A DNA stretch of 24,000 bases, from NCBI GenBank assembly GCA_045128915.1, contig JBGVIT010000006.1:81302-105301 (forward strand), written 5' to 3'. This DNA comes from Clostridia bacterium. GTDB taxonomy: Bacteria; Bacillota; Clostridia; UBA1381. Positions within the stretch are counted from its first letter, which is position 1, and every line of letters begins with the position of its first letter. This document shows, piece after piece, positions 2,286 through 19,758 of this stretch. Made by a program: the position numbers and the translations under genes. A model generated the notes under the pieces. The model did not search any database. It was not told the origin of the DNA and worked only from the letters and a program-made list of their open reading frames with translations.

Positions 2286-3641
2286 ATGGAAAACAAAAGA
2301 AGTAGTTTTACCGGCAAAATAGGCTTTGTACTTGCAGCGGCAGGTTCAGCAGTCGGCTTGGGAAATATATGGAGATTTCCGTATCTTGCAGCTAATTACG
2401 GAGGCGGTATTTTTTTACTTGTGTATCTTGTGCTTGCTGTAACTTTTGGCTTTGCTCTTATGACAGCAGAGGTTGCAATAGGTAGAAAAACAGGACTTAG
2501 TGCTATTGAAGCATTTAAGAAGTTAAAAAGTAAATGGGCATTTATAGGATATATCGAAGCTTTGATACCTATTATAATTCTTCCGTATTATTCGGTTATC
2601 GGCGGCTGGGTAACAAAATATCTGTTTGAATTTACAGTAGGAAACGGTGCCGCAACTGCTGCAGACAGCTTTTTTGGCGGATTTATAGGACAGCCTGTAT
2701 CACCACTTGTCTGGTTTGCAATTTTTATCGGTATAACAGCGCTTATAGTCTGGTTCGGTGTAGAAAAGGGCGTAGAGAAAGTCAGCAGAATAATGATGCC
2801 TGTGCTTGTGGTATTGTCTGTTATTATAGCTGTGTATGTTGCGTTTATTCCTGGTGCTAAAGACGGAATTTTGTGGTATGTTCTTCCTGATTTCAGCCGT
2901 TTCTCGTTTACAACTGTGCTTGCGGCTATGGGACAGCTTTTCTATTCAATGTCACTGTCAATGGGCATCATGATAACATACGGCTCATACATGAAAAAGG
3001 ACGTAAACTTAGAATCATCAGTAAGACAAATTGAAATTTTTGACACAGCTATTGCATTCATTGCAGGCCTTATGATAATTCCTGCAGTATTTGCTTTTTC
3101 AGGCGGAAATGAGGAAGCTCTCGGAAAAGGTCCGGGACTTATGTTTGTTACACTTCCCAAAGTGTTTGAAAGCATGGTTGGCGGCAGAATAGTAGGATTG
3201 TTGTTCTTTGTGCTGGTTCTCTTTGCGGCACTTACATCTTCAATTTCTCTTATGGAAACAGTTGTATCCATATTCAGAGACAAGCTTGGACTTTCAAGAA
3301 ATAAAGCTTGCTTGGCAGTTCTTGCAATTTCATTGATTTTAGGAATTCCGTCATCTCTCGGTAATGGTATCTGGAGCGGAATCAAGCTTATAGGTATGGA
3401 TTTCCTCACATTCTTTGATTTTATAAGTAACAGCGTTCTTATGCCTGTTGTTGCATTCTTAACTTGTATTTTCATTGGCTATATTGTAAAGCCAAAGACG
3501 GTTATTGAAGAAGTTGAGCTTACGGGCAAATTTAAGGCAAAGGGATTATTTGTTGTAGTAATTAAATATTTTGCACCCATATGTATAGCGCTCATCCTTA
3601 TATGCTCTATATTGGAGGCTATGGGCGTTATGAGTATTTGA
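2286..3641 (+). CDS. Sodium-dependent transporter, neurotransmitter:sodium symporter (SNF/NSS) family
   Basis: Signature GSAVGLGNIWRFPY near the N-terminus. Multi-pass hydrophobic protein of 451 aa. GGAGG RBS at 2275-2279. Confidence 0.9.
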   Translation: MENKRSSFTGKIGFVLAAAGSAVGLGNIWRFPYLAANYGGGIFLLVYLVLAVTFGFALMTAEVAIGRKTGLSAIEAFKKLKSKWAFIGYIEALIPIIILPYYSVIGGWVTKYLFEFTVGNGAATAADSFFGGFIGQPVSPLVWFAIFIGITALIVWFGVEKGVEKVSRIMMPVLVVLSVIIAVYVAFIPGAKDGILWYVLPDFSRFSFTTVLAAMGQLFYSMSLSMGIMITYGSYMKKDVNLESSVRQIEIFDTAIAFIAGLMIIPAVFAFSGGNEEALGKGPGLMFVTLPKVFESMVGGRIVGLLFFVLVLFAALTSSISLMETVVSIFRDKLGLSRNKACLAVLAISLILGIPSSLGNGIWSGIKLIGMDFLTFFDFISNSVLMPVVAFLTCIFIGYIVKPKTVIEEVELTGKFKAKGLFVVVIKYFAPICIALILICSILEAMGVMSI

Positions 3642-3652
3642 TGATTATCCAA

Positions 3653-3688
3653 ACAGAAATCCGCAGATGCGGATTTCTGTTTTTTTTT
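3653..3688 (+). terminator. Rho-independent terminator of the SNF transporter gene
   Basis: 12-bp perfect stem ACAGAAATCCGC (3653-3664) / GCGGATTTCTGT (3669-3680), loop AGAT, then T8 (3681-3688). Confidence 0.9.
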
Positions 3689-3782
3689 GTTGTAAATTTA
3701 CACTAAAAAATTCTATACTTCGAGTTATTTTTCAAAAAAATGTAAAAAAAGAAATTACCAACAAAAAAATATTCTTATGTTC

Positions 3783-3811
3783 TTGACATAAGTCTTTGAA
3801 TATGGTATCAT
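3783..3811 (+). promoter_or_regulatory. Sigma-A promoter of the ilvE / oxidoreductase / acyl-CoA synthetase operon
   Basis: Consensus -35 TTGACA (3783-3788), 17-nt spacer, extended -10 TGgTATCAT (3803-3811). A/T-rich UP-like tract upstream (3700-3780). Confidence 0.65.
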
Positions 3812-3846
3812 TTATTAAAGTAATTCAGGAAGGTTTGGATGTTGTA

Positions 3847-3966
3847 ATGAGTTTAGTAGCGACTTTGTTCAGCGACAACATAATAATTATAAGCGCGCTA
3901 ATTATTGCCATTGCGATTATTAGTGCTGATTGTGGTGCCGTTAAGTCTTTAAAGGTTGGTTGCTGA
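3847..3966 (+). CDS. Putative 39-aa Ile-rich leader peptide (MSLVATLFSDNIIIISALIIAIAIISADCGAVKSLKVGC)
   Basis: ATG 3847 to TGA 3964-3966, not in the supplied ORF track because it is short. 9/39 codons are Ile (ATA/ATT at 3880-3891, 3901-3906, 3910-3912, 3916-3921). AGGAAGG RBS at 3827-3833. A 2-codon mini-ORF (ATG TTG TAA, 3839-3847) overlaps the start as TAATG. The ORF sits between the promoter and a terminator directly upstream of ilvE. Confidence 0.45.
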   Translation: MSLVATLFSDNIIIISALIIAIAIISADCGAVKSLKVGC

Positions 3967-4016
3967 ATATTACAATTATTTAAATGCATTGTTTACCAAT
4001 TAAAAGCTTACGGCAC
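3935..4016 (+). promoter_or_regulatory. Putative antiterminator hairpin of the ilvE leader
   Basis: 3935-3941 pairs with 4010-4016, 3943-3945 with 4007-4009, and 3947-3950 with 4003-4006 (14 bp, two 1-nt bulges). The helix is extended by 3954-3960 : 3995-4001 (7 bp including 2 GU). It sequesters the 5' arm of the terminator. The leader stop codon lies in its apical loop. Confidence 0.45.
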
Positions 4017-4032
4017 AAGCCGTAAGCTTTTT
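4002..4032 (+). terminator. Leader (attenuator) terminator upstream of ilvE
   Basis: Stem GCTTACGGC (4006-4014) / GCCGTAAGC (4019-4027), loop ACAA, extendable by 4 A-U pairs, then T5 (4028-4032). Only 37 nt with no promoter-like hexamers separate it from the ilvE ATG. Confidence 0.75.
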
Positions 4033-4069
4033 CTGAATTAAAAAAACAAGAAAAAAGAGGCGTCTTATT

Positions 4070-5134
4070 ATGGAAATTAAAATCACAAGAACAACACAGC
4101 CAAAACAAAAGCCCGCACCGGGTACAAAGCTTGGTTTCGGTAAGATTTTTACCGACCATATGTTTGTAATGAACTATACCGAAGGTAAAGGTTGGCACGA
4201 TGCAAGAATAGTGCCTTATGCACCTATTTCTCTTGATCCTTCATGTATGGTATTCCATTACGGTCAGGAAATGTTCGAAGGTCTTAAAGCATATCGTGGT
4301 GCTGACGGCAAGGCAAGACTGTTCAGACCTGATATGAATGCAAAGCGTGCCAATAAGAGTAACGAAAGACTTTGTATTCCTGAAATTCCTGAAGAGGATT
4401 TTGTAGAAGCAGTTAAGGCGGTAGTGAAGGTTGATGAGGATTGGATTCCTGAAGATGACGGAACATCTTTGTATATCAGACCTTTTGTAATTGCAACAGA
4501 TGAATTTCTTGGTGTTGCGCCTTCAAAGACATATATGTTCATTATCATACTTGCTCCAAGCGGTGCATATTATGAAAACGGTCTTGCACCCGTGGGCATC
4601 TGGATTGAGGACGACTACGTAAGAGCAGTTAAGGGTGGTATGGGCTTTGCAAAGACCGGCGGTAACTATGCAGCAAGTCTTGCAGCTCAGGTAAAGGCTC
4701 ACGACGACGGATATTCTCAGGTGCTTTGGCTTGACGGCGTTGAAAGAAAGTATATCGAAGAAGTTGGAGCGATGAATATTTTCTTCAAGCTTGACGGAAA
4801 AATTGTAACTCCTATGCTCAACGGAAGTATCCTTCCCGGTGTAACAAGAAACTCTGTAATCCAGCTTTGTAAGTCTTTGGGCTACGAAGTAGAGGAAAGA
4901 AAGGTTTCAGTTGACGAGCTTGTAGAAGCTGCTAAAAACGGAACATTAGAAGAATGTTTCGGAACAGGTACAGCAGCAGTAATCTCTCCCGTTGGTAAGC
5001 TCAGATACAAAGATGATGTATTTGAAATCAACAACAACGAAATCGGTGCAGTAAGCCAGAAACTTTACGACACAATCACCGGTATTCAATGGGGAAAATG
5101 CGAGGATGAGTTTAATTGGACAATAACTCTTTAA
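4070..5134 (+). CDS. ilvE: Branched-chain amino acid aminotransferase (PLP fold type IV)
   Basis: FGKIFTDHMF, FEGLKAYR, TGGNYAASL, LPGVTR and GTAA motifs typical of the ~355-aa BCAT subgroup. RBS AAAGAGG at 4054-4060. Confidence 0.93.
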   Translation: MEIKITRTTQPKQKPAPGTKLGFGKIFTDHMFVMNYTEGKGWHDARIVPYAPISLDPSCMVFHYGQEMFEGLKAYRGADGKARLFRPDMNAKRANKSNERLCIPEIPEEDFVEAVKAVVKVDEDWIPEDDGTSLYIRPFVIATDEFLGVAPSKTYMFIIILAPSGAYYENGLAPVGIWIEDDYVRAVKGGMGFAKTGGNYAASLAAQVKAHDDGYSQVLWLDGVERKYIEEVGAMNIFFKLDGKIVTPMLNGSILPGVTRNSVIQLCKSLGYEVEERKVSVDELVEAAKNGTLEECFGTGTAAVISPVGKLRYKDDVFEINNNEIGAVSQKLYDTITGIQWGKCEDEFNWTITL

Positions 5135-5802
5135 AATATAAAAGAATTTCTGTTTTCGTAGGTCACTACGGAAGCGGCAAAACAAATGTAGCTTTAAACT
5201 ACGCTCTTTCCGTAAGGGAACATGAAAAGCACGTAGCAGTAGCTGACCTTGATATTGTAAATCCGTATTTCAGGACTCAGGATAGTGCTAAAATGCTTGA
5301 AGATAAAGGCATTCGCCTTATTTCATCAGAATTTGCAGGTTCAAATGTGGATTTGCCCGCGCTTCCGGCAGATGTTTATACTATATCTCATAACCACGAT
5401 ATATATGCGGTGATGGATGTTGGTGGCGATGACAGAGGTGCGTTGGCACTTGGAAGATATGTTCCTGCAATAGTAGAAGAAAATAATTATAACGTATTTT
5501 TTGTTATTAACAAATTCAGACCTCTTACAAAAACTCCCGAACTTACAGTCGAGGTGCTTCGTGAGGTGGAGCAAGCGGCAGGCATAAAGGTTACTGCGCT
5601 TATAAACAACTCCAATCTCGGCGAGGATACCACGTGTGAAGATATAGAAGGCTCTGCAAAATATGCAGAAGAAGTAAGCAGGCTTTCAGGAATTCCTGTT
5701 GCATTTACAACGGTGCGTGAGGATTTGAGTGAAAAGGTGAATTTGGATAACATAATGCCTATAAGGTTGTATGTACAACAAAGCTGGCAAAAGGAGGTAT
5801 AA
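5116..5802 (+). CDS. P-loop NTPase of unknown function (SIMIBI/MinD-GPN-like)
   Basis: Walker A GHYGSGKTN at aa 16-24 and a Walker-B-like hhhDVGGDD. TTG start at 5116 preceded by GAGGA (5102-5106). It overlaps the ilvE 3' end by 19 nt and stops 5 nt before the ferredoxin-subunit ATG. The start codon is somewhat uncertain. Confidence 0.65.
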   Translation: MDNNSLKYKRISVFVGHYGSGKTNVALNYALSVREHEKHVAVADLDIVNPYFRTQDSAKMLEDKGIRLISSEFAGSNVDLPALPADVYTISHNHDIYAVMDVGGDDRGALALGRYVPAIVEENNYNVFFVINKFRPLTKTPELTVEVLREVEQAAGIKVTALINNSNLGEDTTCEDIEGSAKYAEEVSRLSGIPVAFTTVREDLSEKVNLDNIMPIRLYVQQSWQKEV

Positions 5803-5807
5803 TACTT

Positions 5808-6011
5808 ATGGCAAAGGTAACTTTTAAAAAGGATTTGTGTAAGGGTTGCGGACTTTGTGTTGGCGCTTGCCCAAAGCATATTGTAGAGCTTACAGGTGAA
5901 ATAAATGCAAAAGGATATCATCCAGCTGCTGTAACAGATCCTGAGCAGTGTATTGGCTGTGCATTCTGTGCAACAATGTGTCCTGATTGCGTAATTACAG
6001 TAGAAAAATAA
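5808..6011 (+). CDS. 2-oxoacid:ferredoxin oxidoreductase delta subunit (2x[4Fe-4S] ferredoxin)
   Basis: Two CxxCxxCxxxCP motifs (CKGCGLCVGACP, CIGCAFCATMCP) in 67 aa. AAGGAGG RBS at 5791-5797. Immediately precedes the alpha/beta/gamma subunits. Confidence 0.85.
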   Translation: MAKVTFKKDLCKGCGLCVGACPKHIVELTGEINAKGYHPAAVTDPEQCIGCAFCATMCPDCVITVEK

Positions 6012-6032
6012 TTTGAGAAAGGATTGAATTCA

Positions 6033-7100
6033 ATGTCAGAAAAGGTTTTGATGAAGGGTAACGAAGCTTTGGCTGAAGCTGCTATTATGGCGGGCTGCCG
6101 TCACTATTTCGGATATCCTATAACACCTCAGACTGAGGTTGCAGCATATATGTCAAAGAGAATGCCCAAGATTGACGGTGTATTTCTTCAGGCAGAAAGT
6201 GAAATTGCTGCTATAAATATGGTAATCGGAGTTGCCGCAACGGGTAAGAGAGTTATGACTTCAAGCTCCAGCCCCGGTATATCTCTTAAAAGTGAAGGAC
6301 TTTCATATCTTGCAGGATGCGATGTTCCTGCTCTCGTAGTTAACGTACAGCGTGGCGGCCCCGGTCTCGGCGGTATTCAGCCATCACAATCAGATTATTT
6401 CCATGCAACAAGAGGTCCCGGTCATGGTGATTTCCACATGATTGTTCTTGCTCCTGCATCAGTTCAGGAAATGGTTGACCTTACATTCAAAGGCTTTGAC
6501 CTTGCAGAAAAATACAGAATGACTTCTATGCTTCTTTCAGATGGAACAATGGGACAGATGATGGAGCCTGTAACACTTGATATGGGCGAAATCAAAGAAT
6601 ACGACAAGTCATGGGCTCTCACCGGAACAAAATGCGAAAGAGCTCCGAGAATTGTCAACTCACTTTTCCTTAAGCCTGAAGAGCTTGAAGTAACTAACTT
6701 TGAAAGATACGAAAGATATAAGCAGATTGAAGAAAATGAAGCAATGTTTGAAGAGTACAGAATGGAAGATGCAGAGGTTTGTATCGTAGCATTCGGTGTT
6801 GCTTCAAGAGTTTCAAAAAATGCTATTGACAAAGCAAGAGAGATGGGAATAAAGGTTGGTATGATAAGACCAATCACTCTCTGGCCATTCCCCAAGAAAG
6901 CTTTGGCTGCAGCTGCAGATAAGGTTAAGTCATTTGTTTCTGTTGAGCTTTCAATGGGCCAGATGATTGACGACATCGAGCTTGCAATCCGTTGCAAGAA
7001 GCCGGTTCTTCTTTGTAACCGTGTTGGTGGTATGATTCCCACAGTTGAAAATGTTCTTGAGAAAATTTGCGAAGCAGATAAAGTAGGAGGTGCGAAGTAA
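6033..7100 (+). CDS. 2-oxoacid:ferredoxin oxidoreductase alpha subunit (VorB/KorA-like)
   Basis: N-terminus MSEKVLMKGNEALAEAAIMAGCRHYFGYPITPQTE is characteristic of the OFOR alpha subunit. I prefer ATG 6033 (RBS GAGAAAGGA at 6015-6023, 9-nt spacing) over the track's TTG at 6024. Confidence 0.9.
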   Translation: MSEKVLMKGNEALAEAAIMAGCRHYFGYPITPQTEVAAYMSKRMPKIDGVFLQAESEIAAINMVIGVAATGKRVMTSSSSPGISLKSEGLSYLAGCDVPALVVNVQRGGPGLGGIQPSQSDYFHATRGPGHGDFHMIVLAPASVQEMVDLTFKGFDLAEKYRMTSMLLSDGTMGQMMEPVTLDMGEIKEYDKSWALTGTKCERAPRIVNSLFLKPEELEVTNFERYERYKQIEENEAMFEEYRMEDAEVCIVAFGVASRVSKNAIDKAREMGIKVGMIRPITLWPFPKKALAAAADKVKSFVSVELSMGQMIDDIELAIRCKKPVLLCNRVGGMIPTVENVLEKICEADKVGGAK

Positions 7101-7861
7101 TGAAAGTATTTGAAAAACCCCATGCTCTGACAGATAATGTACTCCATTACTGCCCCGGATGTACTCATGGTATTATCCACCGTCTTGTTGCTGAAGCGAT
7201 TGACGAGCTTGGAATAGAAGGCAGAACTATTGGCGTTGCTCCCGTTGGCTGCAGCGTTATGGCTTATAACTACTTTAATGTTGATATGGTTCAGGCAGCT
7301 CACGGAAGAGCTCCCGCTGTTGCAACGGGTGTTAAGCGTTCTGATCCGAATAATATAGTATTTACTTATCAGGGCGATGGCGACCTTGCCGCTATTGGTA
7401 CAGCTGAAACAGTTCATTCAGCAGCGCGTGGTGAAAATATCACAGTAATATTCGTAAACAACGCTATATACGGTATGACCGGCGGCCAGATGGCTCCTAC
7501 AACACTTCCCGGTCAGGTAACACAGACATCACCCTATGGCCGTGATATTGAAAGCGTTGGCTATCCTGTAAAGGTTTGTGAAATGCTTTCACAGCTTGAC
7601 GGTGCAGCATATCTTGAAAGAGTAGCTGTAAACAACGTTAAGAACGTAAGAAATGCTAAAAAAGCAATTAAGAAAGCTTTTCAGAATCAGGTAGAAGGAA
7701 AAGGCTTCTCACTTGTAGAAGTAGTATCTACTTGTCCTACAAATTGGGGACTCACACCTGAAAAAGCACTTGAATGGCTTGAAGAAAACATGATTCCGTA
7801 TTATCCTTTGGGAGTATATAAGGATAAGTATGCCGAGAAGGAGGATGGAGCTAATGACTAA
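7100..7861 (+). CDS. 2-oxoacid:ferredoxin oxidoreductase beta subunit (TPP-binding)
   Basis: CPGCTHG Fe-S ligand region and the TPP motif GDGDLAAIG...NNAIYGMTGGQ. The start ATG overlaps the alpha stop (TAATG). Confidence 0.9.
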   Translation: MKVFEKPHALTDNVLHYCPGCTHGIIHRLVAEAIDELGIEGRTIGVAPVGCSVMAYNYFNVDMVQAAHGRAPAVATGVKRSDPNNIVFTYQGDGDLAAIGTAETVHSAARGENITVIFVNNAIYGMTGGQMAPTTLPGQVTQTSPYGRDIESVGYPVKVCEMLSQLDGAAYLERVAVNNVKNVRNAKKAIKKAFQNQVEGKGFSLVEVVSTCPTNWGLTPEKALEWLEENMIPYYPLGVYKDKYAEKEDGAND

Positions 7862-8393
7862 ACAAATATTACTCGCAGGCTTCGGTGGTCAGGGAATACT
7901 TTTCTCAGGAAAGTTCCTTGCATATGAAGGCTTGCTTGAAGGCAAAGAGCTTAGCTGGCTTCCGTCATACGGACCTGAAATGCGTGGCGGAACTGCAAAC
8001 TGCAGCGTTATATTAAGCGATGAACCCGTTGGCTCTCCTATCGTAACAAATCCTGACATTCTCATTGCGATGAACCTGCCTTCATTGGATAAGTATGAGG
8101 ATGCAACAGTTGCGGGCGGTCAGATATTTGTTGACAGCTCTCTTATTGAAAGAAAGGTTCAGCGCACAGATGCAGAAGCATACTATATCCCTGCAACAAA
8201 GCTTGCATCAGATAACGACCTTTCAGGTCTTGCAAATATGATAATGATAGGTTATATGATTAAAAAGTCAGGAATAATCCCTTATGAAAATATTGCAAAA
8301 ACAGTAGAAAAGATAGTTCCTGCAAAAAAACAGCATCTTGTTGAAGCAAACAAGAAAGCTATTGAGCTTGGTTATAACTATATCGAGGCTTAA
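7854..8393 (+). CDS. 2-oxoacid:ferredoxin oxidoreductase gamma subunit
   Basis: [17 protein letters not shown] is typical of the gamma subunit. ATG 7854 has a strong AAGGAGGA RBS (7838-7845) and overlaps the beta stop. The track's upstream ATG at 7830 lacks an RBS. Confidence 0.88.
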
Positions 8394-8428
8394 TACAAAA
8401 AAAGTATTGTGAAAGGAGTAAAAATATT

Positions 8429-8977
8429 ATGAATGAACAAATCAAAGATATTGGTATGCGTCTTGCGTGCTTAAGAGAGGATATGGAATTTACTATACAA
8501 CAAATGGCTGAAAAACTTGGCATTGACGAGAATACATACATAGCGTATGAGAAAGGCGAGCTTGATTTTTCATTCAGCTTCATTTACAATGCAGCAGAAA
8601 TATTAGGTGTTGACGTACTTGACCTTATAAGCGGAAGTGCGCCTACGCTCTCTATGTGCTGTATGGTACAAAAGGGCAAGGGCTACTCTGTTAAAAGAGA
8701 TGATGAGTACGACTACAAGCACCTTGCATACACTTTCCGTAACAAAAAGGCAGAGCCTTTCCTTGTTACAATCTCTCCTGATGTAAAACCCGTTATGCAT
8801 GGACATGACGGTCAGGAATTCAACTATGTCATATCCGGCAAACTGAAGTTTTGTATAGGTGACATTTCATATGAGCTTACAGAGGGTGACAGCGTGTATT
8901 TTGATGCAAGCATACCCCATGCAGAAATGGCACTTGACGGAAAAGAAGCACAGTTCATTGCTGTGGTTGTAAAATAA
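8429..8977 (+). CDS. XRE-family HTH transcriptional regulator with C-terminal cupin sensor domain
   Basis: The N-terminal HTH_3-like segment (IGMRLACLRE...TIQQMAEKLGIDENTYIAYEKG) plus cupin motifs (HGHDGQEFNYVISGKL...GDSVYFDASIPH) give a PuuR-like architecture. AAAGGAG RBS. Confidence 0.85.
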   Translation: MNEQIKDIGMRLACLREDMEFTIQQMAEKLGIDENTYIAYEKGELDFSFSFIYNAAEILGVDVLDLISGSAPTLSMCCMVQKGKGYSVKRDDEYDYKHLAYTFRNKKAEPFLVTISPDVKPVMHGHDGQEFNYVISGKLKFCIGDISYELTEGDSVYFDASIPHAEMALDGKEAQFIAVVVK

Positions 8978-9004
8978 AGCAGTATTTCGGTTTGGAGGAT
9001 AATT

Positions 9005-10693
9005 ATGGCAATCTATGAAAAATTTGTGGGAGCATCAAGAGATGATTTTATCTCTCTTGATGATGCCCAGAAGAACTATAAACTAACATATAATGATGAT
9101 TTTAACTTTGCATACGATGTAGTGGATGAATTAGGCAAAACAAAGCCTGAAAAGCTTGCAATGGTTTGGGTATCAAAAGATGGGGAAGAAATGAGATTTA
9201 CTTTCCACGATATGATGATTTACTCAAACAAGGCGGCAAACTATCTCAACTACATGGGTATCCAGAAGGGTGATAAGGTACTGCTTGCTATGAAGCGCAG
9301 TTATTACTTCTGGTTTGTTATGCTGGGACTTCACAAAATCGGTGCAGTAGCCGTTCAGGCAACTAATATGCTTAAGGCTAAGGATTATGTATATCGCTGT
9401 AATGCAGGCAAGATAAAGGCAGTAATTCTTACAGGCGACGGTTCGGAAACTGAATATTTTGATGAAGGCGGCGACCAATACGAAACAATAGAAAAGAAAT
9501 TCGTATTGGGACATAAAAAAGCAGGAGAAGGCTGGATTGATTTTGAAGAAGGCTTTGCTCTTGCAAATACTGAATGGTCAAGACCTACCGGTGATCAGGC
9601 AATTATGGCTGATGATATGATGCTTATGGCATTTTCATCAGGAACATCCGGTTATCCCAAAATTATTACACACAACTTCAAATATCCTTTGGGACATATT
9701 ATGACCGGAGTTTTCTGGCATAGGGTAGTTGATGGCGGAATCCATTTTACAGTTTCCGACACCGGTTGGCTTAAGAGTCTTTGGGGAAAATTCTACGGAC
9801 AATGGTTTGGCGAAAGTGCTGTGTTTGTGTACGACTTTGACAAGTTTGACGGAGCGGATATTCTGTCAAAACTTGAAAAGTATAAAATCACAACCTTCTG
9901 TGTGCCGCCTACTATGTACAGAATGATTCTTCAAAACGATGTTAAGAAGTATGACCTTTCATCTTTGGTTCATTGCTGCACAGCAGGTGAAGCTTTGAAT
10001 CCTGAGATTTATAATAAGTGGTACGATGCTACGGGGCTTAAGATTTACGAAGGCTTTGGACAGACAGAAACAACTCTTTGTATTGCTACAATCAAGCCTT
10101 GGACACAGCCGGTACCCGGTGCAATAGGATTCCCCGTTCCTGGATTTGATGCACACATCATCGACGATCAGGGACATAGCTGCTCACGTGGTGCTACCGG
10201 TGAAATCTGTATTCGTGTTCTTAGCAATGAAAGAAAGCCTTGCGGCTTGTTGGATACATACAATTTCAGCGAAGAAGACACCTTAAAAGCTCTTCATGAC
10301 GGATTTTATCATACGGGTGATACTGCGTACAGAGATGAAAAAGGTATGTTCCGTTATGTAGGAAGAAATGATGATGTTATTAAGTCATCAGGCTATCGTA
10401 TCGGACCTTTTGAAATCGAAAGCGTTCTCCTTGAGCATCCGGCAGTTCTTGAAGTTGCAGTAACCGGAGTCCCTGATGCCGTTCGTGGATTTGCTGTAAA
10501 GGCAACTATTGTGTTGGCTTCAGGATTTGTCGGCTCCGATGAACTTACAAAAGAGCTTCAGACCTACGTTAAGACAAATACAGCTCCATATAAGTATCCA
10601 AGAATTGTTGAATACGTATCGGAGCTACCCAAAACATTTAACGGAAAAATCAGACGTGCTGAAATCCGTGAAAACGATTCAAAGAATAACTAA
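9005..10693 (+). CDS. AMP-forming medium/short-chain acyl-CoA synthetase (ACSM/MacS-like adenylate-forming enzyme)
   Basis: FNFAYDVVDELG N-terminal motif of the ACSM family, AMP-binding signature SSGTSGYPK, YGQTE-like GFGQTET, GDTAYRDEKG..GRNDDVIKSSGYRIGPFEIE, and C-terminal catalytic GKIRR. GGAGG RBS. Confidence 0.88.
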   Translation: MAIYEKFVGASRDDFISLDDAQKNYKLTYNDDFNFAYDVVDELGKTKPEKLAMVWVSKDGEEMRFTFHDMMIYSNKAANYLNYMGIQKGDKVLLAMKRSYYFWFVMLGLHKIGAVAVQATNMLKAKDYVYRCNAGKIKAVILTGDGSETEYFDEGGDQYETIEKKFVLGHKKAGEGWIDFEEGFALANTEWSRPTGDQAIMADDMMLMAFSSGTSGYPKIITHNFKYPLGHIMTGVFWHRVVDGGIHFTVSDTGWLKSLWGKFYGQWFGESAVFVYDFDKFDGADILSKLEKYKITTFCVPPTMYRMILQNDVKKYDLSSLVHCCTAGEALNPEIYNKWYDATGLKIYEGFGQTETTLCIATIKPWTQPVPGAIGFPVPGFDAHIIDDQGHSCSRGATGEICIRVLSNERKPCGLLDTYNFSEEDTLKALHDGFYHTGDTAYRDEKGMFRYVGRNDDVIKSSGYRIGPFEIESVLLEHPAVLEVAVTGVPDAVRGFAVKATIVLASGFVGSDELTKELQTYVKTNTAPYKYPRIVEYVSELPKTFNGKIRRAEIRENDSKNN

Positions 10694-10727
10694 AAAAATA
10701 GTGTCCTGACGGACACTATTTTTTTTA
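10691..10727. terminator. Bidirectional rho-independent terminator between the convergent acyl-CoA synthetase and tagA-like genes
   Basis: Stem ATAGTGTCC (10698-10706) / GGACACTAT (10711-10719), loop TGAC. A7 upstream and T8 downstream give a U-tract on either strand. Confidence 0.85.
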
Positions 10728-11465
10728 ATGTTCTTGTTTATATTTTTTGCCGTTTAATATAACTGTTACGGCGAACTTTGGAAGTGACATCATTCTCTTA
10801 GCTCTCCAAGGTTCTTTCATAAGGCGATAGAACCATTCAAGACCATGCTTGCAATAGAAATCGGGAGCACGTTCAACCACTCCGGCAAATACGTCAAGAC
10901 TTCCGCCAATTCCAAGTGCAGCTTTTACCTTCAGCTTGTCTGCGTTCTCATCAATCCAATATTCTTGCTTCGGAGCGCCTAAGCATACAAACAATAAGTC
11001 AGCACCTGAATTGTTGATTTCTTCCACAATTTCGGGTGTTTCTTCAGGCTTGAAATATCCGTTTCGAGTGCCTGCGATTTTTATTCCGGGGTATTTTTTT
11101 TCAAGTTCTTCCTTAGCTGTGTCAGCAATTCCCGGCTTCCCGCCGAATAAGAACAGCTTGTAATCTGACTTTGCAACCTTTTCGAGAAGCTTGCATGCTA
11201 TATCATAGCCTGCTGCGCGTTCAGGAACGGGGTGTTTAAGAATTTGTGCTGCCTTAACAACACCTATACCGTCAGCTGTAAGAAGGTCGGCATTATTGAG
11301 GATTTTCGCAAAATTTTTGTCATTATAACCTGCCATTATGATTTCGGAATTGGGAGTAAATACTTTTGCGCACTTATCTCCGCTTAAAAATGAGAATATG
11401 AGATCGGCAGAATCATTTATACCTATGCGGTCAACCTTGACTCCTAAAATGTTTACTTTCTTCAT
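10725..11465 (-). CDS. tagA: WecB/TagA/CpsF-family glycosyltransferase (GT26; N-acetylmannosaminyltransferase-like)
   Basis: ILGVKVD..., TPNSEI..., LLTADGIGVV, FGGKPG, LFVCLGAPKQE are typical of the TagA/WecG family. I prefer ATG 11465 because AGGAGA at 11480-11475 abuts the track's ATG at 11474 but is 9 nt from 11465. Confidence 0.82.
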   Translation of the reverse strand: MKKVNILGVKVDRIGINDSADLIFSFLSGDKCAKVFTPNSEIIMAGYNDKNFAKILNNADLLTADGIGVVKAAQILKHPVPERAAGYDIACKLLEKVAKSDYKLFLFGGKPGIADTAKEELEKKYPGIKIAGTRNGYFKPEETPEIVEEINNSGADLLFVCLGAPKQEYWIDENADKLKVKAALGIGGSLDVFAGVVERAPDFYCKHGLEWFYRLMKEPWRAKRMMSLPKFAVTVILNGKKYKQEH

Positions 11466-11489
11466 AACATTCATTCTCCTTAGGAAAGC

Positions 11490-12854
11490 TTATCTGTCAC
11501 ACATATATGTATATGGTCTTGGCTTTGAAATGGATTTGTATGCAGGACGTATGATTTTTCTGTTTGCGTGTACTTCTTCAAGTCTGTGAGCGCACCAGCC
11601 CGGAATTCTTGCGATTGCAAACAATGGCGTATATAATTCTTCGGGGATGCCGAGTAACTTATATACAAATCCTGAATACAAGTCAACGTTTGCACACATT
11701 ACCTTGCCGTTGTTCTTAACCTTTTCAAATACAGCCGGTGTAAGCTCTTCAACCAACTTGTAAAGCTCAAATTCTTTTACAAATTCAGGGCTTTGCTTAA
11801 CAAGCTTTTCTGCTTTTCTCTTAATTATAACTGCTCTTGGATCAGAAAGTGTATAGATTGCATGTCCCATACCGTATATAAGACCTGAATGGTCATAGGC
11901 TTCTTTTCTTATGATTTTTTCAAGATATGCGCTGACCTCGTCTTTGTCTGTCCAATCAGAAACATTTGCCTTTATATCTTCTATCATGCCCATTACTTTA
12001 GCGTTTGCACCACCGTGTTTTGGACCTTTCAGGGAACCTATGGCAGCTGAAATAGCAGAGTATGTATCAGTATCCGATGATGAAACAACGTGCGTTGTAA
12101 ATGCGGAGTTATTACCGCCGCCATGCTCTGCATGTACCATAAGTAATGTATCAAGAAGCTCTGCTTCGTCTTTTGTATATTTGTTGTCTGTGCGGAGCAT
12201 ATAAAGGAAATTTTCAGCAGTTGACAGTTTCGGATTTGGTGAATGAAGGAACAGACTGAGTCCGTCGTAATAATGACGCTTTGCCTGATAACCGTATGAT
12301 GCCATGACCGGAAGCTGAGCAATTAGGTGAATTGATTGCCTGAATATATTATCAACTGACAGGTCATCGGGGTTGTTGTCATAAGAATATGATGCAAGGA
12401 CAGAACGCGCAAGCTTATTCATTATATTATTGCTTGGAGCTTTCAGAATCATATCCTCTGCAAAGCCATCAGGCAAGAATCTGGAATTTCCGATGTATGA
12501 CTTGAATTTTGCAAGCTCATCTTCAGTTGGCAGTTTGCTTGTAAGAAGCAGATAAACAACCTCTTCAAAACCAAATCTGTTTTCTTTTTCGCAAGCTTCT
12601 ACAATATGGCTTATATCATATCCGCGATAGCGAAGATGTCCATGCATAGGCTTTTTCTCACCGTCGTCAATATAGTAGCCTGAAACCTCACCTATTGAGG
12701 TAAGACCTGCCATTACACCGGTTCCGTCTTTATATCTCAAGCCTTTTTTTACGTTGTACTTGTCATAGATTTCTTTATCAAGAGGTGCATACGCTTTATT
12801 GATGCCCTCTTTAAGAGTTTGCTCAAATTTATTAAGGTCTGTTTGATTTATCAT
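11490..12854 (-). CDS. gltA: Citrate synthase (Si-type family)
   Basis: GPKHGGAN, GMGHAIYTLSDPRA and NVDLYSG correspond to the conserved citrate synthase catalytic His/Asp motifs. ATG 12854 (RBS AAAGGA) is preferred over the TTG at 12872. Confidence 0.88.
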   Translation of the reverse strand: MINQTDLNKFEQTLKEGINKAYAPLDKEIYDKYNVKKGLRYKDGTGVMAGLTSIGEVSGYYIDDGEKKPMHGHLRYRGYDISHIVEACEKENRFGFEEVVYLLLTSKLPTEDELAKFKSYIGNSRFLPDGFAEDMILKAPSNNIMNKLARSVLASYSYDNNPDDLSVDNIFRQSIHLIAQLPVMASYGYQAKRHYYDGLSLFLHSPNPKLSTAENFLYMLRTDNKYTKDEAELLDTLLMVHAEHGGGNNSAFTTHVVSSSDTDTYSAISAAIGSLKGPKHGGANAKVMGMIEDIKANVSDWTDKDEVSAYLEKIIRKEAYDHSGLIYGMGHAIYTLSDPRAVIIKRKAEKLVKQSPEFVKEFELYKLVEELTPAVFEKVKNNGKVMCANVDLYSGFVYKLLGIPEELYTPLFAIARIPGWCAHRLEEVHANRKIIRPAYKSISKPRPYTYMCDR

Positions 12855-12878
12855 TTGACCGTGTCCTTTCAAATTGCG

Positions 12879-15089
12879 TTATTCAAAGGATATCTGACCG
12901 CTGTCCTCTTTTCTTATAAAACAGCCTGCGGCGGGGATATTCTTTGTTGAGTAGTATTTCAGGTCGCTGAGTGCTGTGTTTTCTGGTGTAGTAACACGTA
13001 TAAGCTTGGAGTTTTTCTTTTTAAGAGTAAGAACCTGAACACCTTGAGTGTTCTTTGTGGATTTCACAGGTATTTTTTCTGTATTAAACACCAATGCTTT
13101 ATTGTTGTCAGAAATTGCAACCAACTGCTTGTCGGACTCCAGATAATGAATTGCGCAAAGCGGTGATTTGTCCGAGTATGCGTTGATAAGACGCTTTCTG
13201 TTTGTTTTGGTGGCATAATTTGAAAGTTCTACTTTTGCCATTTTACCGTTTTCGAAGCAGTACAGCATCATGCCTTTATAATCTGTTGTAACGACCATAT
13301 AAACAAATTTTTCGTCACCTTCTGCATTAACAAGACCGGGAACATATTCTCCCATTGTGCTAACCTTTGCGTCAGGAATGTCATTGCATTTAATCTTATA
13401 AACTGTTGATTTGTCGGTGAACAGAAGAACCTCTGCTCTGTTTGTTGTTTCAATCTCCTGAATGATTTTATCCCCGTCCTTAAGCTTATGCTCGGTCGAA
13501 CTCATGCGCAGGGAGTTGTATGGGATTTTCTTCAGGTAATTGTCCTGAGTAAAGAACAAGGTAAGCGGGTAGTCCTCAATAACTTCTGTTTCTGTGTATG
13601 AAACAACTTCTGTTTCGGAAATAAGTTCTGTTTTTCTTTCGATTGCGTATTTCTTGGAAATTTCCGCAAGCTGTTTTGAAATGAGCTTCTTGATTTTCTT
13701 ATCGCTTGAAATTAAATCTTCAAGCTCAGCGATTTCCTCAATAAGCTTTTCAATTTCGGCAGTACGATTGAGAATATATTCGCGGTTTAAATTACGAAGC
13801 TTTATATCAGCAACATATTCCGCCTGAACCTTGTCGATGGAAAAACCGTCCATAAGGTTCGGAACAACATCTTCATCACGCTCTGTGTGGCGAACAATGC
13901 TGATTGCTTTATCAATATCAAGCAGGATTTTTTTAAGACCGGTGAGCAGGTGGAGCTTTGCACTCTTTTTGGAAATGTCGTATTCGGTTGCGTTTTTAAT
14001 GCATTGAATACGGAACAGTATCCATTCTCTCAAAATGTCCTTAACACCAAGCACCATCGGCTTTGAGTTAATAAGCACGTTAAAATTACAGCTGAATGAA
14101 TCCTCAAGAGATGTGAGCTTATAAAGCTTTGACATAAGCGCATCTGCATCTGTACCTCTCTTTAAGTCAATGGCAATTTTAAAGCCCTGAAGCCCCGTTT
14201 CATCTCTTGCATCCGAAATTTCTCTAAGCTTGCCCGCTTTTATGTTTTCCATAATTTTAGCGATGATTACTTCGCTTGTTGTGGTATATGGAATTTCTGT
14301 GATTTCTATACAGTTATTTTTTGCATCAAAGGAATACTTGGCACGAAGCTTGAAGCTGCCTCGTCCGGTTTCGTATATCTTATCCATTTCCTCTTTGTCA
14401 TATATAAGCTGAGCGCCCATAGAAAAGTCGGGCGCGGGCATAAATTCGGAAATGTCGCACTTTTCATCTTTGATATATGCAATAGTTGCATCGCAAACCT
14501 CTTTAAGATTGAATGAACAAATGTTGCTTGCCATACCGACAGCAATACCCTGATTGGGGTTTACGAGAATGTGTGGAAACGTGGTAGGGAGTAAGGTTGG
14601 CTCCTGCATTGTTCCGTCATAGTTGTCAATGAACTTAACTGTGTTTTTATTAATATCCGCAAACAATTCATTACAGATAGGCTCAAGCTTTGCTTCTGTG
14701 TATCTTGAAGCAGCATATGCCATATCACGTGAATATTGCTTACCAAAGTTTCCCTGAGATTCTACAAGAGGATGCAAAAGAGCCTCATTACCCCTTGTAA
14801 GACGTACCATGGTTTCATATATTGCCGCATCACCATGTGGATTAAGCTGCATTGTTTGTCCCACAATATTTGCAGATTTTATCATCTTGCCCGTAAGAAG
14901 CCCCATTTTATACATGGTATATAAAAGCTTTCTGTGAGCAGGTTTAAGTCCGTCAATTTCAGGAATTGCGCGGGAAATAATAACGCTCATGGCATAGGGC
15001 ATATAATTTGTTTCAAGAGTTTCACAAATAGGCTGCTGGCGCACTTCTGCCGGAATAAACTCCGGTTCAGCGGTTTTCTTTTTAGCCAT
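12879..15089 (-). CDS. parC: Type IIA DNA topoisomerase subunit A, topoisomerase IV ParC-like
   Basis: DGLKPAHRKLLY, QLNPHGD and the active-site AASRYTEAKL (catalytic Tyr). 736 aa with a short C-terminal beta-pinwheel domain and no GyrA-box (QRRGGKG-like) that I can find, which favours ParC over GyrA. Confidence 0.8.
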   Translation of the reverse strand: MAKKKTAEPEFIPAEVRQQPICETLETNYMPYAMSVIISRAIPEIDGLKPAHRKLLYTMYKMGLLTGKMIKSANIVGQTMQLNPHGDAAIYETMVRLTRGNEALLHPLVESQGNFGKQYSRDMAYAASRYTEAKLEPICNELFADINKNTVKFIDNYDGTMQEPTLLPTTFPHILVNPNQGIAVGMASNICSFNLKEVCDATIAYIKDEKCDISEFMPAPDFSMGAQLIYDKEEMDKIYETGRGSFKLRAKYSFDAKNNCIEITEIPYTTTSEVIIAKIMENIKAGKLREISDARDETGLQGFKIAIDLKRGTDADALMSKLYKLTSLEDSFSCNFNVLINSKPMVLGVKDILREWILFRIQCIKNATEYDISKKSAKLHLLTGLKKILLDIDKAISIVRHTERDEDVVPNLMDGFSIDKVQAEYVADIKLRNLNREYILNRTAEIEKLIEEIAELEDLISSDKKIKKLISKQLAEISKKYAIERKTELISETEVVSYTETEVIEDYPLTLFFTQDNYLKKIPYNSLRMSSTEHKLKDGDKIIQEIETTNRAEVLLFTDKSTVYKIKCNDIPDAKVSTMGEYVPGLVNAEGDEKFVYMVVTTDYKGMMLYCFENGKMAKVELSNYATKTNRKRLINAYSDKSPLCAIHYLESDKQLVAISDNNKALVFNTEKIPVKSTKNTQGVQVLTLKKKNSKLIRVTTPENTALSDLKYYSTKNIPAAGCFIRKEDSGQISFE

Positions 15090-15109
15090 TTATACTTTCA
15101 TCCTTTCAA

Positions 15110-17128
15110 TCAGCTTATATCAAGCATATCCATATATGCATAACCGTTTTCTGCAATATAGTCTTTTCTTTCCTGAAGCTTATCGCCAAGAAGAATATCA
15201 AACATAAGCGCAGTTTTTTCTACGTTTTCAGGTGTTACACGGATGAGTCGTCTTGTTGCCGGGTGCATGGTTGTAAGACTCATCATGTCTGGCTGGTTTT
15301 CACCAAGACCTTTTGAACGCTTGATTTCATACTCGTCCTTTTCTCTTGAAAGACCTTCTTCTTCAAGCTTTGCAACAATGGCATCCTTTTCTGCGTCGGT
15401 ATATGCAAACTTCTTTTCTCCCTTGCGCTTTGTCTTAAGGATAGATATTTCATACAGCGGAGATTCTGCAATATATACCTTTCCTGCATCAATCAAAGAG
15501 GGAGTAAGGCGGTAAATCATTGTCAGAACAAGAGTTCGTATCTGGAAACCGTCAACATCTGCGTCGGTACATATTATAACCTTGTCCCATCTCAGATTAT
15601 CCATGCTGAAGCTGTCAACTTTGGTGTTGTGCTTTGACTTGATTTCCACACCGCAGCCCAGAACTTTTAGTAAATCAACGATTATATCGCTTTTGAATAT
15701 TTTCGGATAGTCAGCCTTAAGGCAGTTGAGGATTTTGCCTCTGATTGGCATAATAGCCTGAAACATGGGATCTCTCGCTTGTTTACATGAACCGAGCGCT
15801 GAATCACCCTCAACGATATAAATTTCTCTTTTTGTTTTATCTTTAGTACGGCAGTCAACAAACTTTTCTACTCTGTTTGTAACGTCCATTGTGCCGGTAA
15901 GCTTTTTCTTAATATCAATTCGTGCTTTTTCCGCATTTTCACGGCTTCGCTTGTTAACCAATACCTGATTTGCGATTTTTTCTGCGTCTATCTTATTTTC
16001 AATAAAATAGATTTCAAGCTGCGTTTTTATAAATTCACTCATAGCCTCCTGAATGAATTTGTTATTGATAGCTTTCTTGGTCTGGTTTTCATAGCTTGTC
16101 TGGGTTGAGAATGAATTTATTACCAGCGCAAGACAGTCGCTTACATCATTAAAGCTTATTTTTGACTCGTTTTTGTTATATTTGTTGTTTGTTCTCAGAT
16201 ATTTATCAATAGCATTGGTAAAGGCGGTTCTCACCGCTTTATCAGGTGAGCCGCCATGCTCAAGCCAGCTGGAGTTGTGATAATATTCCAGAGTATTTAC
16301 TGTGTTTGAAAAGCAGAATACTATCTGCATTTTAACCTTGTAGTCAGCCATGTCCTCTCTGTCGCGGCCTTTTCTTTCACATTCCCAATTCTGTATATCA
16401 GTAAATGACTGCTCGTCAGTTTTTTCGCGGAGATAATCAACAATACCGCTTTCGTAGAAATATTCGTACATTTCCATGCCGTCAGTAGTTTCGTTGTAGA
16501 ATATGAATTTAAGACCGGCATTTACCATAGCCTGCTTTTCGAGAGTATCTTTATAGAATTCCACAGGAATTGCAATGTCTGTAAATACGTCAAGGTCAGG
16601 CTTCCAGCGCTGAACAGTTCCCGTCTGAACACTTCTTGTAGGCTCTTTTGTGAGTCCGCCTATGTTTTCGCCTTTTTCAAAGTGAAGAGTATATTTTGTT
16701 TTATCTCTCACTACCGTAACGTCCATGTACTCAGAACTATACTGAGTTGCACACGCACCAAGTCCGTTAAGACCAAGACTGTACTCGTACATTCCGTCTG
16801 AGTTATTATTATATTTTCCGCCTGCATACAGTTCGCAGAATACAAGCTCCCAATTAAACTTGCCTTCTTTTTCGTTGTAATCTACGGGTATTCCACGCCC
16901 ATGGTCGCGAATTTCAATAGAGTTATCGAGAAATCTTGTAATCTCAATAACATTTCCGTAGCCTTCGCGGGCTTCGTCGATAGAGTTTGACAAAATTTCA
17001 AAAAACGAATGCTGACATCCCTCAAGACCGTCAGAGCCGAATATAACCGCCGGACGTTTTCTTACTCTGTCCGCACCTTTAAGGCTGGTTATACTCTCGT
17101 TATCATAGGTTTTTTTCTTACCTGCCAT
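15110..17128 (-). CDS. parE: Type IIA DNA topoisomerase subunit B, topoisomerase IV ParE-like
   Basis: GHKL ATPase N-box (ILSNSIDEA), Toprim EGDSA, PIRGKILN, DADVDGFQIRTL. 672 aa. Located 20 nt upstream of the A subunit. Confidence 0.8.
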   Translation of the reverse strand: MAGKKKTYDNESITSLKGADRVRKRPAVIFGSDGLEGCQHSFFEILSNSIDEAREGYGNVIEITRFLDNSIEIRDHGRGIPVDYNEKEGKFNWELVFCELYAGGKYNNNSDGMYEYSLGLNGLGACATQYSSEYMDVTVVRDKTKYTLHFEKGENIGGLTKEPTRSVQTGTVQRWKPDLDVFTDIAIPVEFYKDTLEKQAMVNAGLKFIFYNETTDGMEMYEYFYESGIVDYLREKTDEQSFTDIQNWECERKGRDREDMADYKVKMQIVFCFSNTVNTLEYYHNSSWLEHGGSPDKAVRTAFTNAIDKYLRTNNKYNKNESKISFNDVSDCLALVINSFSTQTSYENQTKKAINNKFIQEAMSEFIKTQLEIYFIENKIDAEKIANQVLVNKRSRENAEKARIDIKKKLTGTMDVTNRVEKFVDCRTKDKTKREIYIVEGDSALGSCKQARDPMFQAIMPIRGKILNCLKADYPKIFKSDIIVDLLKVLGCGVEIKSKHNTKVDSFSMDNLRWDKVIICTDADVDGFQIRTLVLTMIYRLTPSLIDAGKVYIAESPLYEISILKTKRKGEKKFAYTDAEKDAIVAKLEEEGLSREKDEYEIKRSKGLGENQPDMMSLTTMHPATRRLIRVTPENVEKTALMFDILLGDKLQERKDYIAENGYAYMDMLDIS

Positions 17129-17294: not shown

Positions 17295-17330
17295 ATTAAC
17301 ATGGTTTTAATGATATGGAGGATAATTTTT

Positions 17331-17858: not shown

Positions 17859-17876
17859 TAAAAGGAAGGTTTACCA

Positions 17877-19697: not shown

Positions 19698-19704
19698 ATA
19701 TCAT

Positions 19705-19742
19705 AAGAGGTTGTTGACATTAGTGCAGACAACCTCTTTTTC
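19705..19742 (+). terminator. Hairpin terminator (possibly leaky) after the VanW gene
   Basis: 10-bp stem AAGAGGTTGT (19705-19714) / ACAACCTCTT (19729-19738), a 14-nt loop, and a short T-run (19737-19741) interrupted by C. Confidence 0.6.
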
Positions 19743-19758
19743 AAAAAACGGTGAAACT

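Follow-up and report, generated by a model that had tools for sequence, protein, structure and literature searches.

Why would a bacterium of the class Clostridia place a branched-chain aminotransferase, a ferredoxin-dependent oxidoreductase, and an acyl-CoA ligase together behind a leader peptide rich in isoleucine? The genes in question lie at 3783-10727 of a 24,000-nucleotide stretch from a Clostridia bacterium (assembly GCA_045128915.1, contig JBGVIT010000006.1, positions 81,302 to 105,301 of the forward strand). We refer to this whole stretch as the window. Our answer, to which we give a probability of about 78%, is that these genes form an operon, induced by starvation, through which branched-chain volatile fatty acids are assimilated into branched-chain amino acids (BCAAs). 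At the level of sequence, the answer is carried by the operon structure, the attenuator, the family membership of IlvE and of the oxidoreductase's alpha subunit, the homology of the ligase, the conserved gene neighborhood, and regulation that is specific to BCAAs. From these we infer the direction in which the oxidoreductase works, the actual substrates, and the roles of two further proteins, a P-loop NTPase and a helix-turn-helix (HTH)-cupin protein.

First, the region 3783-10727 reads as a single compact transcription unit. A sequence-only reading of this DNA had proposed one operon running from a promoter at 3783 to a bidirectional terminator, and we located the promoter, the leader, eight genes, and the end terminator where it had placed them (Table 1). 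The eight genes 3' of the leader are ilvE, the P-loop NTPase, the delta, alpha, beta, and gamma subunits of a 2-oxoacid:ferredoxin oxidoreductase (OFOR), the HTH-cupin protein, and an AMP-forming ligase. A Shine-Dalgarno sequence precedes each of them. The distances between successive genes are -19, 5, 21, -1, -8, 35, and 27 nt, in agreement with the proposal that the junctions overlap or are shorter than 40 nt, and the proposed subunit sizes of the OFOR (delta 67, alpha 355, beta 253, and gamma 179 aa) match our gene table. It had also been proposed that no terminator intervenes between the promoter and the end of the operon. This holds as well, in that the attenuator is the only real terminator within the unit: the other matches within genes that look like promoters or terminators are weak and as frequent as in shuffled sequence. 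The terminator at 10692-10725 serves both the operon and a convergent wecG-like gene.

Second, the operon has the features of a leader-peptide attenuator that responds to isoleucine. The product of the leader open reading frame (ORF) is MSLVATLFSDNIIIISALIIAIAIISADCGAVKSLKVGC, in which 9 of the 39 residues are Ile. The end of this ORF can form an antiterminator whose pairing competes with the terminator hairpin; the antiterminator fold has a predicted energy of -24.9 kcal/mol, and just 3 of 200 shuffled sequences were equally stable. Leaders rich in Ile also lie 5' of ilvE at two related loci, L002 (9 Ile among 34 residues) and L004 (12 among 37). (Handles of this form denote loci from relatives, which are described below.) Both loci retain the -35 and -10 boxes of the window promoter and the attenuator hairpin, and the stem in L004 shows a compensatory change. 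All the parts of a leader attenuator are present: besides the promoter and a short ORF in which Ile codons cluster, there is a terminator, together with an alternative hairpin that shares sequence with the ORF's end. No T-box or other riboswitch was found in the window at Rfam's gathering scores, none was credible at E ≤ 10 within 3500-4200, and the curated leader families of Rfam gave no match to the peptide attenuator. As read from these elements, the window unit senses Ile alone, and does so by a leader peptide rather than a T-box. The Ile-starvation switch that had been proposed for the leader is thus borne out by the run of Ile codons, the competing hairpins, their conservation in L002 and L004, and the BCAA-specific T-boxes of related loci.

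The same genes recur together in other bacteria. A genome scan with the alpha subunit, using one genome per species, gave 561 relatives, and we analyzed the best 80 loci. The alpha subunits of these 80 are 74-95% identical to the one in the window. The loci come from metagenome-assembled genomes of Acutalibacteraceae, Oscillospiraceae, Ruminococcus, Christensenellaceae, and others, and their habitats are the rumen, caecum, colon, and human gut. The genes for the P-loop NTPase and for OFOR delta, alpha, beta, and gamma are contiguous in all 76 of the genome loci where this could be tested, and both ilvE and a ligase of the MacS type lie within the cluster in 41 of the 52 loci that were fully testable. 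There are two layouts. In layout A, which is that of the window, the order is ilvE, P-loop, OFOR, HTH-cupin, ligase; in layout B, it is HTH-cupin, ligase, P-loop, OFOR, ilvE, often with a second HTH-cupin-ligase unit ahead. A second and independent sample consisted of metagenome contigs seeded on the P-loop protein, with loci of at least 9 kb (n = 27), and 26 of these 27 loci contained the same cluster. Because it recurs in the 80 genome loci and in 26 of the 27 long metagenome loci, the arrangement is not a chance juxtaposition. The sequence-only reading had suggested a survey of gene neighborhoods, and the survey does find the linkage of ilvE, OFOR, and ligase, in two gene orders.

Most of the loci without a leader peptide have a T-box at the leader's position. 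To find these, we ran a covariance model of T-box Stem I on the window and on all 80 genome loci, and one column of the alignment gave the specifier. (This alignment supersedes an earlier reading with regular expressions, which left a few T-boxes unresolved or spurious.) The model found 60 T-box elements. Twenty-two of them have a Leu specifier (CUC, with one CUG) and precede a LeuA-like gene that is followed by a FadD-like ligase. Another 21 with an Ile specifier (AUC), and 10 or 11 with a Val specifier (GUA), lie 190-275 nt before an HTH-cupin-ligase unit, while two with an Ile specifier and one with a Val specifier (GUC) lie directly before operons that begin with ilvE. The frame in which specifiers were read has a positive control in the uniform CUC ahead of the LeuA-like genes, and among the T-boxes read in the 80 genome loci, no specifier for any other amino acid was found beside the cluster. 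In loci with tandem units, the first unit is gated by Ile and the second by Val, with the second continuing into P-loop-OFOR-ilvE; in several layout-A loci, a Leu T-box heads a ten-gene operon that reaches ilvE across a 15-nt gap. In silico, then, expression is tied to BCAA shortage, by the Ile attenuator in the window and by Ile, Val, and Leu T-boxes in orthologous loci. We predict that in these relatives, separate ligases gated by Ile, Val, and Leu feed one common core of OFOR and IlvE.

The type of sensor also varies at a fixed place. At the same operon position, there is an Ile-rich leader in the window (3783-4040), L002 (5700-5997), and L004 (5700-6012), and an Ile or Val T-box in L029 (5657-5891), L012 (1656-1895), and L030 (5700-5942). 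By this comparison, leader peptide and T-box, which are unrelated RNA-level sensors, swap naturally at one operon position.

Sensing of uncharged tRNA-Ile, -Val, and -Leu is a hallmark of genes for amino acid supply, and it is hard to reconcile with catabolism. A catabolic operon would ferment BCAAs to branched acids, and its ligase would be unrelated or would recycle CoA. Such operons do exist: an aminotransferase with a 2-oxoisovalerate oxidoreductase (VOR) is the core of the known catabolic loci of gut Clostridia, which are CLOSPO_00146-00149 in C. sporogenes, CLOBAR_01193-01196 in I. bartlettii, and RUMHYD_00549-00553 in B. hydrogenotrophica, and these loci also contain phosphate butyryltransferase (PTB) and butyrate kinase (BUK) and are induced by BCAAs (PMC13290082). 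The generic names that the JGI annotation pipelines give to homologues of the window's proteins would also suit catabolism. As judged from their descriptions, the catabolic loci resemble the window in having a multisubunit branched-chain OFOR beside an aminotransferase, but the window has an AMP-forming ligase and a starvation sensor instead of PTB/BUK and induction by BCAAs. None of the window's ORFs contains a PTB, BUK, or ADP-forming synthetase domain by which ATP could be conserved, which agrees with the proposal that an AMP-forming ligase takes the place of a phosphotransacylase and a kinase. The conserved neighbors of the OFOR are AMP-forming ligases as well, rather than a phosphotransacylase and an acyl kinase, and a ligase of this kind could not serve for the release of acids. 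Since the regulation is also the opposite of that of the catabolic loci (PMC13290082), we give a catabolic role almost no weight.

The families of the enzymes are consistent with the synthesis of BCAAs. IlvE belongs with the branched-chain aminotransferases, as it scores well above the cut-offs of two ilvE equivalog models (512.6 bits against a cut-off of 307 for NF009897, and 427 bits against a cut-off of 250 for TIGR01123, ilvE_II). The OFOR is of the four-subunit VorB type: its alpha subunit scores 529 bits with NCBIfam's VorB model (NF005507; cut-off 399), and it has a separate beta subunit with the thiamine pyrophosphate domain, a gamma subunit with the POR domain, and a delta subunit with two Fer4 motifs. 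We take the VorB model to be tied to the VorABC enzyme of Methanothermobacter. Homologues of alpha at 83-97% identity carry the name VorB at NCBI. The other models that we compared all scored below their own cut-offs, at 248 bits for the 2-oxoglutarate model OorA (cut-off 579), 319 bits for the generic OFOR alpha model, and 79-109 bits for archaeal Por/Vor alpha models. The sequence-only reading held that firm placement of the OFOR among enzymes for 2-oxoglutarate or pyruvate would speak against it, and no such placement was seen. By these scores and by its nearest solved structures, the OFOR appears to be a family of its own, related as a sister to the KOR-type lineage and not to the Por/Vor type of Pyrococcus.

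The ligase is 50.5% identical, over 546 residues, to MacS from Methanosarcina acetivorans (PDB 3ETC; E = 2.9e-187), so the ACSM/MacS type that had been assigned to it was correct. The Trp residues around the acyl pocket of MacS align with the window ligase. MacS is known to favor 2-methylbutyrate, and it adenylates C3-C8 acids (PMC10455477). MbcS from Staphylococcus aureus, which is AMP-forming as well and shares the preference for 2-methylbutyrate, has a Km of 5-10 uM for both 2-methylbutyrate and isobutyrate and is poor on isovalerate (PMC13041820). We therefore consider that the window's substrates are probably 2-methylbutyrate, chiefly, which would lead to Ile, and isobutyrate, which would lead to Val. 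Unlike MacS and MbcS, the window ligase is paired with an HTH-cupin protein, to which it is fused in relatives, and is part of an amino acid operon. Across the related loci, the subclades of the ligase mostly track the specifier of the T-box.

The proposed mechanism is as follows. When charged tRNA-Ile is scarce, ribosomes translating the leader would halt at its run of Ile codons, the antiterminator (3935-3951 paired with 4003-4016) would replace the terminator, and transcription would enter the eight genes. The MacS-type ligase would activate 2-methylbutyrate, and probably isobutyrate, to the acyl-CoA, converting ATP to AMP and pyrophosphate. The VorB-type OFOR would then combine the acyl-CoA with CO2 and reduced ferredoxin to yield the 2-oxoacid, and transamination of this 2-oxoacid by IlvE would give Ile or Val. 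The two remaining proteins would be accessory, with the P-loop NTPase dedicated to the OFOR and the HTH-cupin protein acting alongside the ligase. Reductive carboxylation had already been proposed for this operon, and it is supported by the VorB score, the homology to MacS, the IlvE models, and the regulation by BCAAs; these point to, rather than establish, the direction of flux and the substrates.

The same enzymes could instead supply primers for branched membrane lipids. IlvE and the OFOR would then run oxidatively, from BCAA to 2-oxoacid to acyl-CoA, in place of a missing branched-chain 2-oxoacid dehydrogenase (BKD), and the ligase would salvage external branched acids for FabH, so that both enzyme branches meet at acyl-CoA. 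There is a precedent in Pfor4 of Clostridium thermocellum (Clo1313_1353-1356), a delta/alpha/beta/gamma enzyme that is annotated as ketoisovalerate reductase, acts oxidatively to make branched acyl-CoA primers, and is needed for iso- and anteiso-fatty acids (PMC13011478). By its description, Pfor4 has the subunit make-up of the window's OFOR and acts on branched-chain 2-oxoacids, in a host of the Clostridia that lacks BKD, but no linkage to ilvE, a ligase, a P-loop protein, or a T-box is reported for it. Also, MbcS, whose family is the top NCBIfam match of the window ligase, serves this kind of salvage in S. aureus (PMC11167679, PMC13041820). However, induction by uncharged tRNA-Ile, -Val, or -Leu, through the leader and about 57 T-boxes, is the logic of amino acid supply, and it would be senseless to degrade an amino acid while starved of it. 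Separate ligases that are each gated by one amino acid and share an OFOR and IlvE are what would be expected for biosynthesis. Because of this starvation logic, we rate the supply of lipid primers as improbable as the sole function. As a secondary use it is plausible, and some of the acyl-CoA formed during assimilation may prime the synthesis of branched-chain lipids.

Several other observations weigh against the assimilation of branched acids into BCAAs. OFORs are reversible enzymes, and those of the clostridial four-subunit branched-chain kind that have been studied to date act oxidatively (PMC13011478, PMC13290082). The OFOR assays in the second of these studies were all run in that direction. 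The window ligase scores 409.6 bits with the MbcS equivalog model (NF047394), below the cut-off of 850, so that it is best seen as a relative of MbcS and not an orthologue, and its clade is separate from the clades gated by Ile and Val T-boxes. In many relatives, the cluster includes a LeuA-like gene. The leader peptide, being hydrophobic, could in principle be a small membrane peptide. Finally, for both alpha and beta, the closest solved structures belong to 2-oxoglutarate and general OFORs; some homologues of alpha at JGI are labeled as 2-oxoglutarate oxidoreductase; and some VOR-like enzymes favor aromatic 2-oxoacids, with the substrate not reliably readable from sequence (PMC13290082). Together with the C3-C8 range of MacS (PMC10455477), these last points would fit an OFOR and a ligase that handle other substrates, such as 2-oxoglutarate and succinyl-CoA or aromatic or straight-chain acids, with ilvE only loosely associated. 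We think that this is very unlikely, given the margin by which VorB outscores OorA and the generic alpha model (which both fall short of their cut-offs), the BCAA specificity of all of the regulatory elements, and the linkage to ilvE in two independent gene orders.

Leucine is the part of the proposal that carries over least well to the window. About 22 loci (for example, L009 1807-5962 and L069 11521-15726) have a Leu T-box, then the LeuA-like gene, and then the FadD-like ligase. The LeuA-like protein has HMGL-like and LeuA_dimer domains and scores below the cut-offs for isopropylmalate synthase. The FadD-like ligase is fused to a xylose-isomerase-like TIM barrel, with a total length of around 830 aa, and it scores 684 bits with PRK12583, against a cut-off of 832. 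This unit may be the isovalerate/Leu branch of the system. Neither of its two genes is present in the window, which we read as a condensed version of the system, with one ligase and with control by a leader peptide. The proposal that the operon makes Val, Leu, and Ile thus stands in part: the relatives have sensors for all three BCAAs, but the window senses only Ile and lacks the LeuA-like and FadD-like unit. The extended clusters repeatedly hold stand-alone genes for AP_endonuc_2 TIM-barrel and Amidohydro_2 proteins (L069 3495-4421 and 15733-16545; L054 11615-12412). The Amidohydro_2 family includes reversible decarboxylases. There is also a ZMP/ZTP riboswitch in L074 (16547-16651; 54 bits), which has no relation to the cluster.

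The P-loop NTPase is more closely bound to the OFOR than its listing in the sequence-only reading, as one gene of the operon, would suggest: the gene is there as listed, and by synteny it is also an integral and invariant partner of the OFOR. It adjoins delta in all 76 testable genome loci and in 26 of the 27 metagenome loci, and in the window it overlaps the end of ilvE by 19 nt and is translationally coupled to it. (One long locus, L148, has a P-loop relative at 7001-7576, with a truncated match at 58% identity, and no recognizable OFOR, ligase, or ilvE as neighbors.) Every homologue is named "hypothetical protein," and Pfam gives only weak matches to CbiA and ParA. The family is invariant at GHYGSGKT, DLDIVNPYFR, DVGGDDRGALALGRY, and NNSN. 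A search of solved proteins with the single sequence gave no match, and the family profile matched solved MinD, FleN, and Mrp over the P-loop region only (E ≥ 0.01). An AlphaFold2 model (pLDDT of 85.7) resembled the GTPase domain of SRP54/FtsY and the ATPase-type HypB in a Foldseek search, at a probability of 1.0 and with query-normalized TM scores of roughly 0.5-0.6, which is a loose likeness. By these comparisons, the P-loop protein is a distinct SIMIBI subfamily that is dedicated to the OFOR. Its role is most likely in the assembly of the OFOR or in the insertion of a cofactor, by analogy. We also considered whether it might be an ATP-driven electron donor like NifH, and we rejected this unlikely role on the grounds that the alignment of the family has no conserved Cys. 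The family alignment also lacks the signature Lys (KGG) of the deviant Walker A motif of MinD, Mrp, and NifH.

The HTH-cupin protein is always immediately 5' of a MacS-type ligase. It is separate from the ligase in 32 units of the layout-A type, about 31 of them after the OFOR and 2 after ilvE (L060 and L068). In all 31 of the T-box-gated layout-B units that precede the P-loop gene or another ligase unit, HTH-cupin and ligase are one ORF. The fused ORFs are roughly 750-800 aa (L054 4699-7092 and 30 others), and they form a Rosetta-stone link between the window's 8429-8977 and 9005-10693. Because of these 31 fusions, the HTH-cupin protein is probably more than a repressor of the operon. The sequence-only reading had called it an XRE-cupin regulator. 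The N-terminal HTH and C-terminal cupin domains are indeed present, and NCBI names the homologues "helix-turn-helix transcriptional regulator," but the label of a plain regulator does not fit well with the fusions or with an equal likeness to an enzyme: the best full-length matches, which are equally good, are HppE, an Fe enzyme, and 1Y9Q, an HTH_3 regulator. HppE is an iron enzyme that combines an HTH-like domain with a cupin. Residues H126, E130, and H164 are invariant in the family. In an AlphaFold2 model, the pLDDT was 69 and the arrangement of the domains was unreliable, and a fold search cannot separate enzyme from regulator. The HTH-cupin protein probably works with the ligase, as a sensor or regulatory module that binds a small molecule or a metal. 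The only palindrome near the promoter is TTGTAAATTTACA at 3690-3702, in the interval that separates the promoter from the upstream terminator. Neither L002 nor L004 retains it, so it is probably not an operator.

A more specific version of these two roles is tentative, and we would sooner bet against it than for it. In this version, the OFOR lineage would depend on the P-loop NTPase as an obligatory partner, which would use nucleotide to mature the OFOR or to bias it toward carboxylation, and the HTH-cupin protein would be either a ligase-coupled product sensor, in the manner of BirA, or a module for feedback by the end product on the activation of acids. If both proteins are mechanistic parts, and if T-boxes gate three ligases that share one OFOR, then the system would be an undescribed modular "2-oxoacid synthase" architecture for the salvage of amino acids from fermentation acids.

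Table 1. Sequence features of the operon, with positions in the window
Feature	Position	Strand	Basis
Promoter, sigma-70 type, TTGACA-17-TGnTATCAT	3783-3811	+	11/12 matches, extended -10 TG
Leader peptide ORF, 39 codons	3847-3966	+	9 Ile (IIII, II, I, II), GGAAGG upstream
Antiterminator	3935-4016	+	end of leader ORF (3935-3951) pairs with 5' arm of terminator (4003-4016)
Attenuator terminator hairpin and T-run	4003-4035	+	-19.7 kcal/mol, z = -7.4
ilvE, branched-chain amino acid aminotransferase, class IV, 354 aa	4070-5134	+	Pfam Aminotran_4; NCBIfam models
P-loop NTPase, SIMIBI class, 228 aa, TTG start	5116-5802	+	Walker A GHYGSGKT
OFOR delta, 67 aa, 2x[4Fe-4S] ferredoxin-like	5808-6011	+	two Fer4 motifs; top NCBIfam matches are OFOR delta subunits
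OFOR alpha, VorB family, 355 aa	6033-7100	+	NF005507 VorB; Pfam POR_N, PFOR_II
OFOR beta, TPP-binding, 253 aa	7100-7861	+	TPP_enzyme_C; nearest solved relatives are OFOR beta subunits
OFOR gamma, 179 aa	7854-8393	+	Pfam POR, 131 bits; NF006323; AAGGAGG before start at 7854
HTH(XRE)-cupin protein, 182 aa	8429-8977	+	Pfam HTH_19, Cupin_2
AMP-forming acyl-CoA synthetase for short or medium chains, MacS/ACSM/MbcS type, 562 aa	9005-10693	+	PDB 3ETC, NCBIfam MbcS
Bidirectional intrinsic terminator	10692-10725	both	15-bp stem between A7 and T7 runs, found on both strands

Directly upstream of the operon is a transporter of the sodium:neurotransmitter symporter family (2286-3641), with a separate terminator (3651-3682). 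Its substrates could be amino acids, but it lies outside the operon and is not conserved beside the cluster in the related loci. Farther upstream is glmS (380-2188), whose upstream spacer is only about 80 nt (300-380) and contains no match to the glmS ribozyme at Rfam's gathering score. This is unusual for genomes of the Firmicutes type. The genes downstream, at 10725-17128 (minus strand) and 17301-22842, have no relation to the operon. The convergent ones encode a glycosyltransferase of the WecG/TagA type, citrate synthase, and GyrA/ParC-like and GyrB/ParE-like topoisomerase subunits, and after them come genes for a VanW-like protein and GatCAB.

How does the operon relate to known systems? 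In classical physiology, rumen bacteria and methanogens make Val, Leu, and Ile by carboxylating isobutyrate, isovalerate, and 2-methylbutyrate reductively. This route has been invoked, for instance, for Methanobrevibacter ruminantium (PMC2812497). The predicted chemistry of the window operon is the same: the acid becomes an acyl-CoA, CO2 and reduced ferredoxin turn this into a 2-oxoacid, and the amino acid follows. Loci of its type also share the habitats of the classical pathway, in the rumen and gut. However, the classical pathway is known from physiology and labeling, whereas the window operon is known from genes alone. Its regulation resembles the leader-peptide attenuators and T-boxes of ilv and leu operons, in having a promoter, a run of regulatory codons within a short ORF, and a mutually exclusive antiterminator and terminator, and the orthologous loci carry BCAA T-boxes too. 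It differs from these in that the regulated genes are not those of the acetolactate pathway, no leader family in Rfam matches it, and a leader peptide or a T-box can occupy the same position in closely related operons of the window type. In the searchable literature, we found no description of an operon that encodes a pathway from branched acids to BCAAs, of its regulation, or of the P-loop or HTH-cupin parts. So the chemistry is classical, while the operon, its regulatory logic, and the two extra components appear to be undescribed there.

Branched-chain volatile fatty acids are required by many fiber-degrading anaerobes of the rumen and gut, and ruminant nutrition makes use of "isoacid" supplements. 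This requirement has been known as a nutritional trait since the 1960s, and its genes have largely been assumed. The operon is a concrete and widespread candidate for the genetic basis of the trait. Current annotation does not separate anabolic from catabolic VOR loci in metagenomes, and the Ile, Val, and Leu T-boxes or the Ile leader could do so. Two uncharacterized families, the P-loop NTPase that is linked to the OFOR and the HTH-cupin protein that is linked to the ligase, also gain a context.

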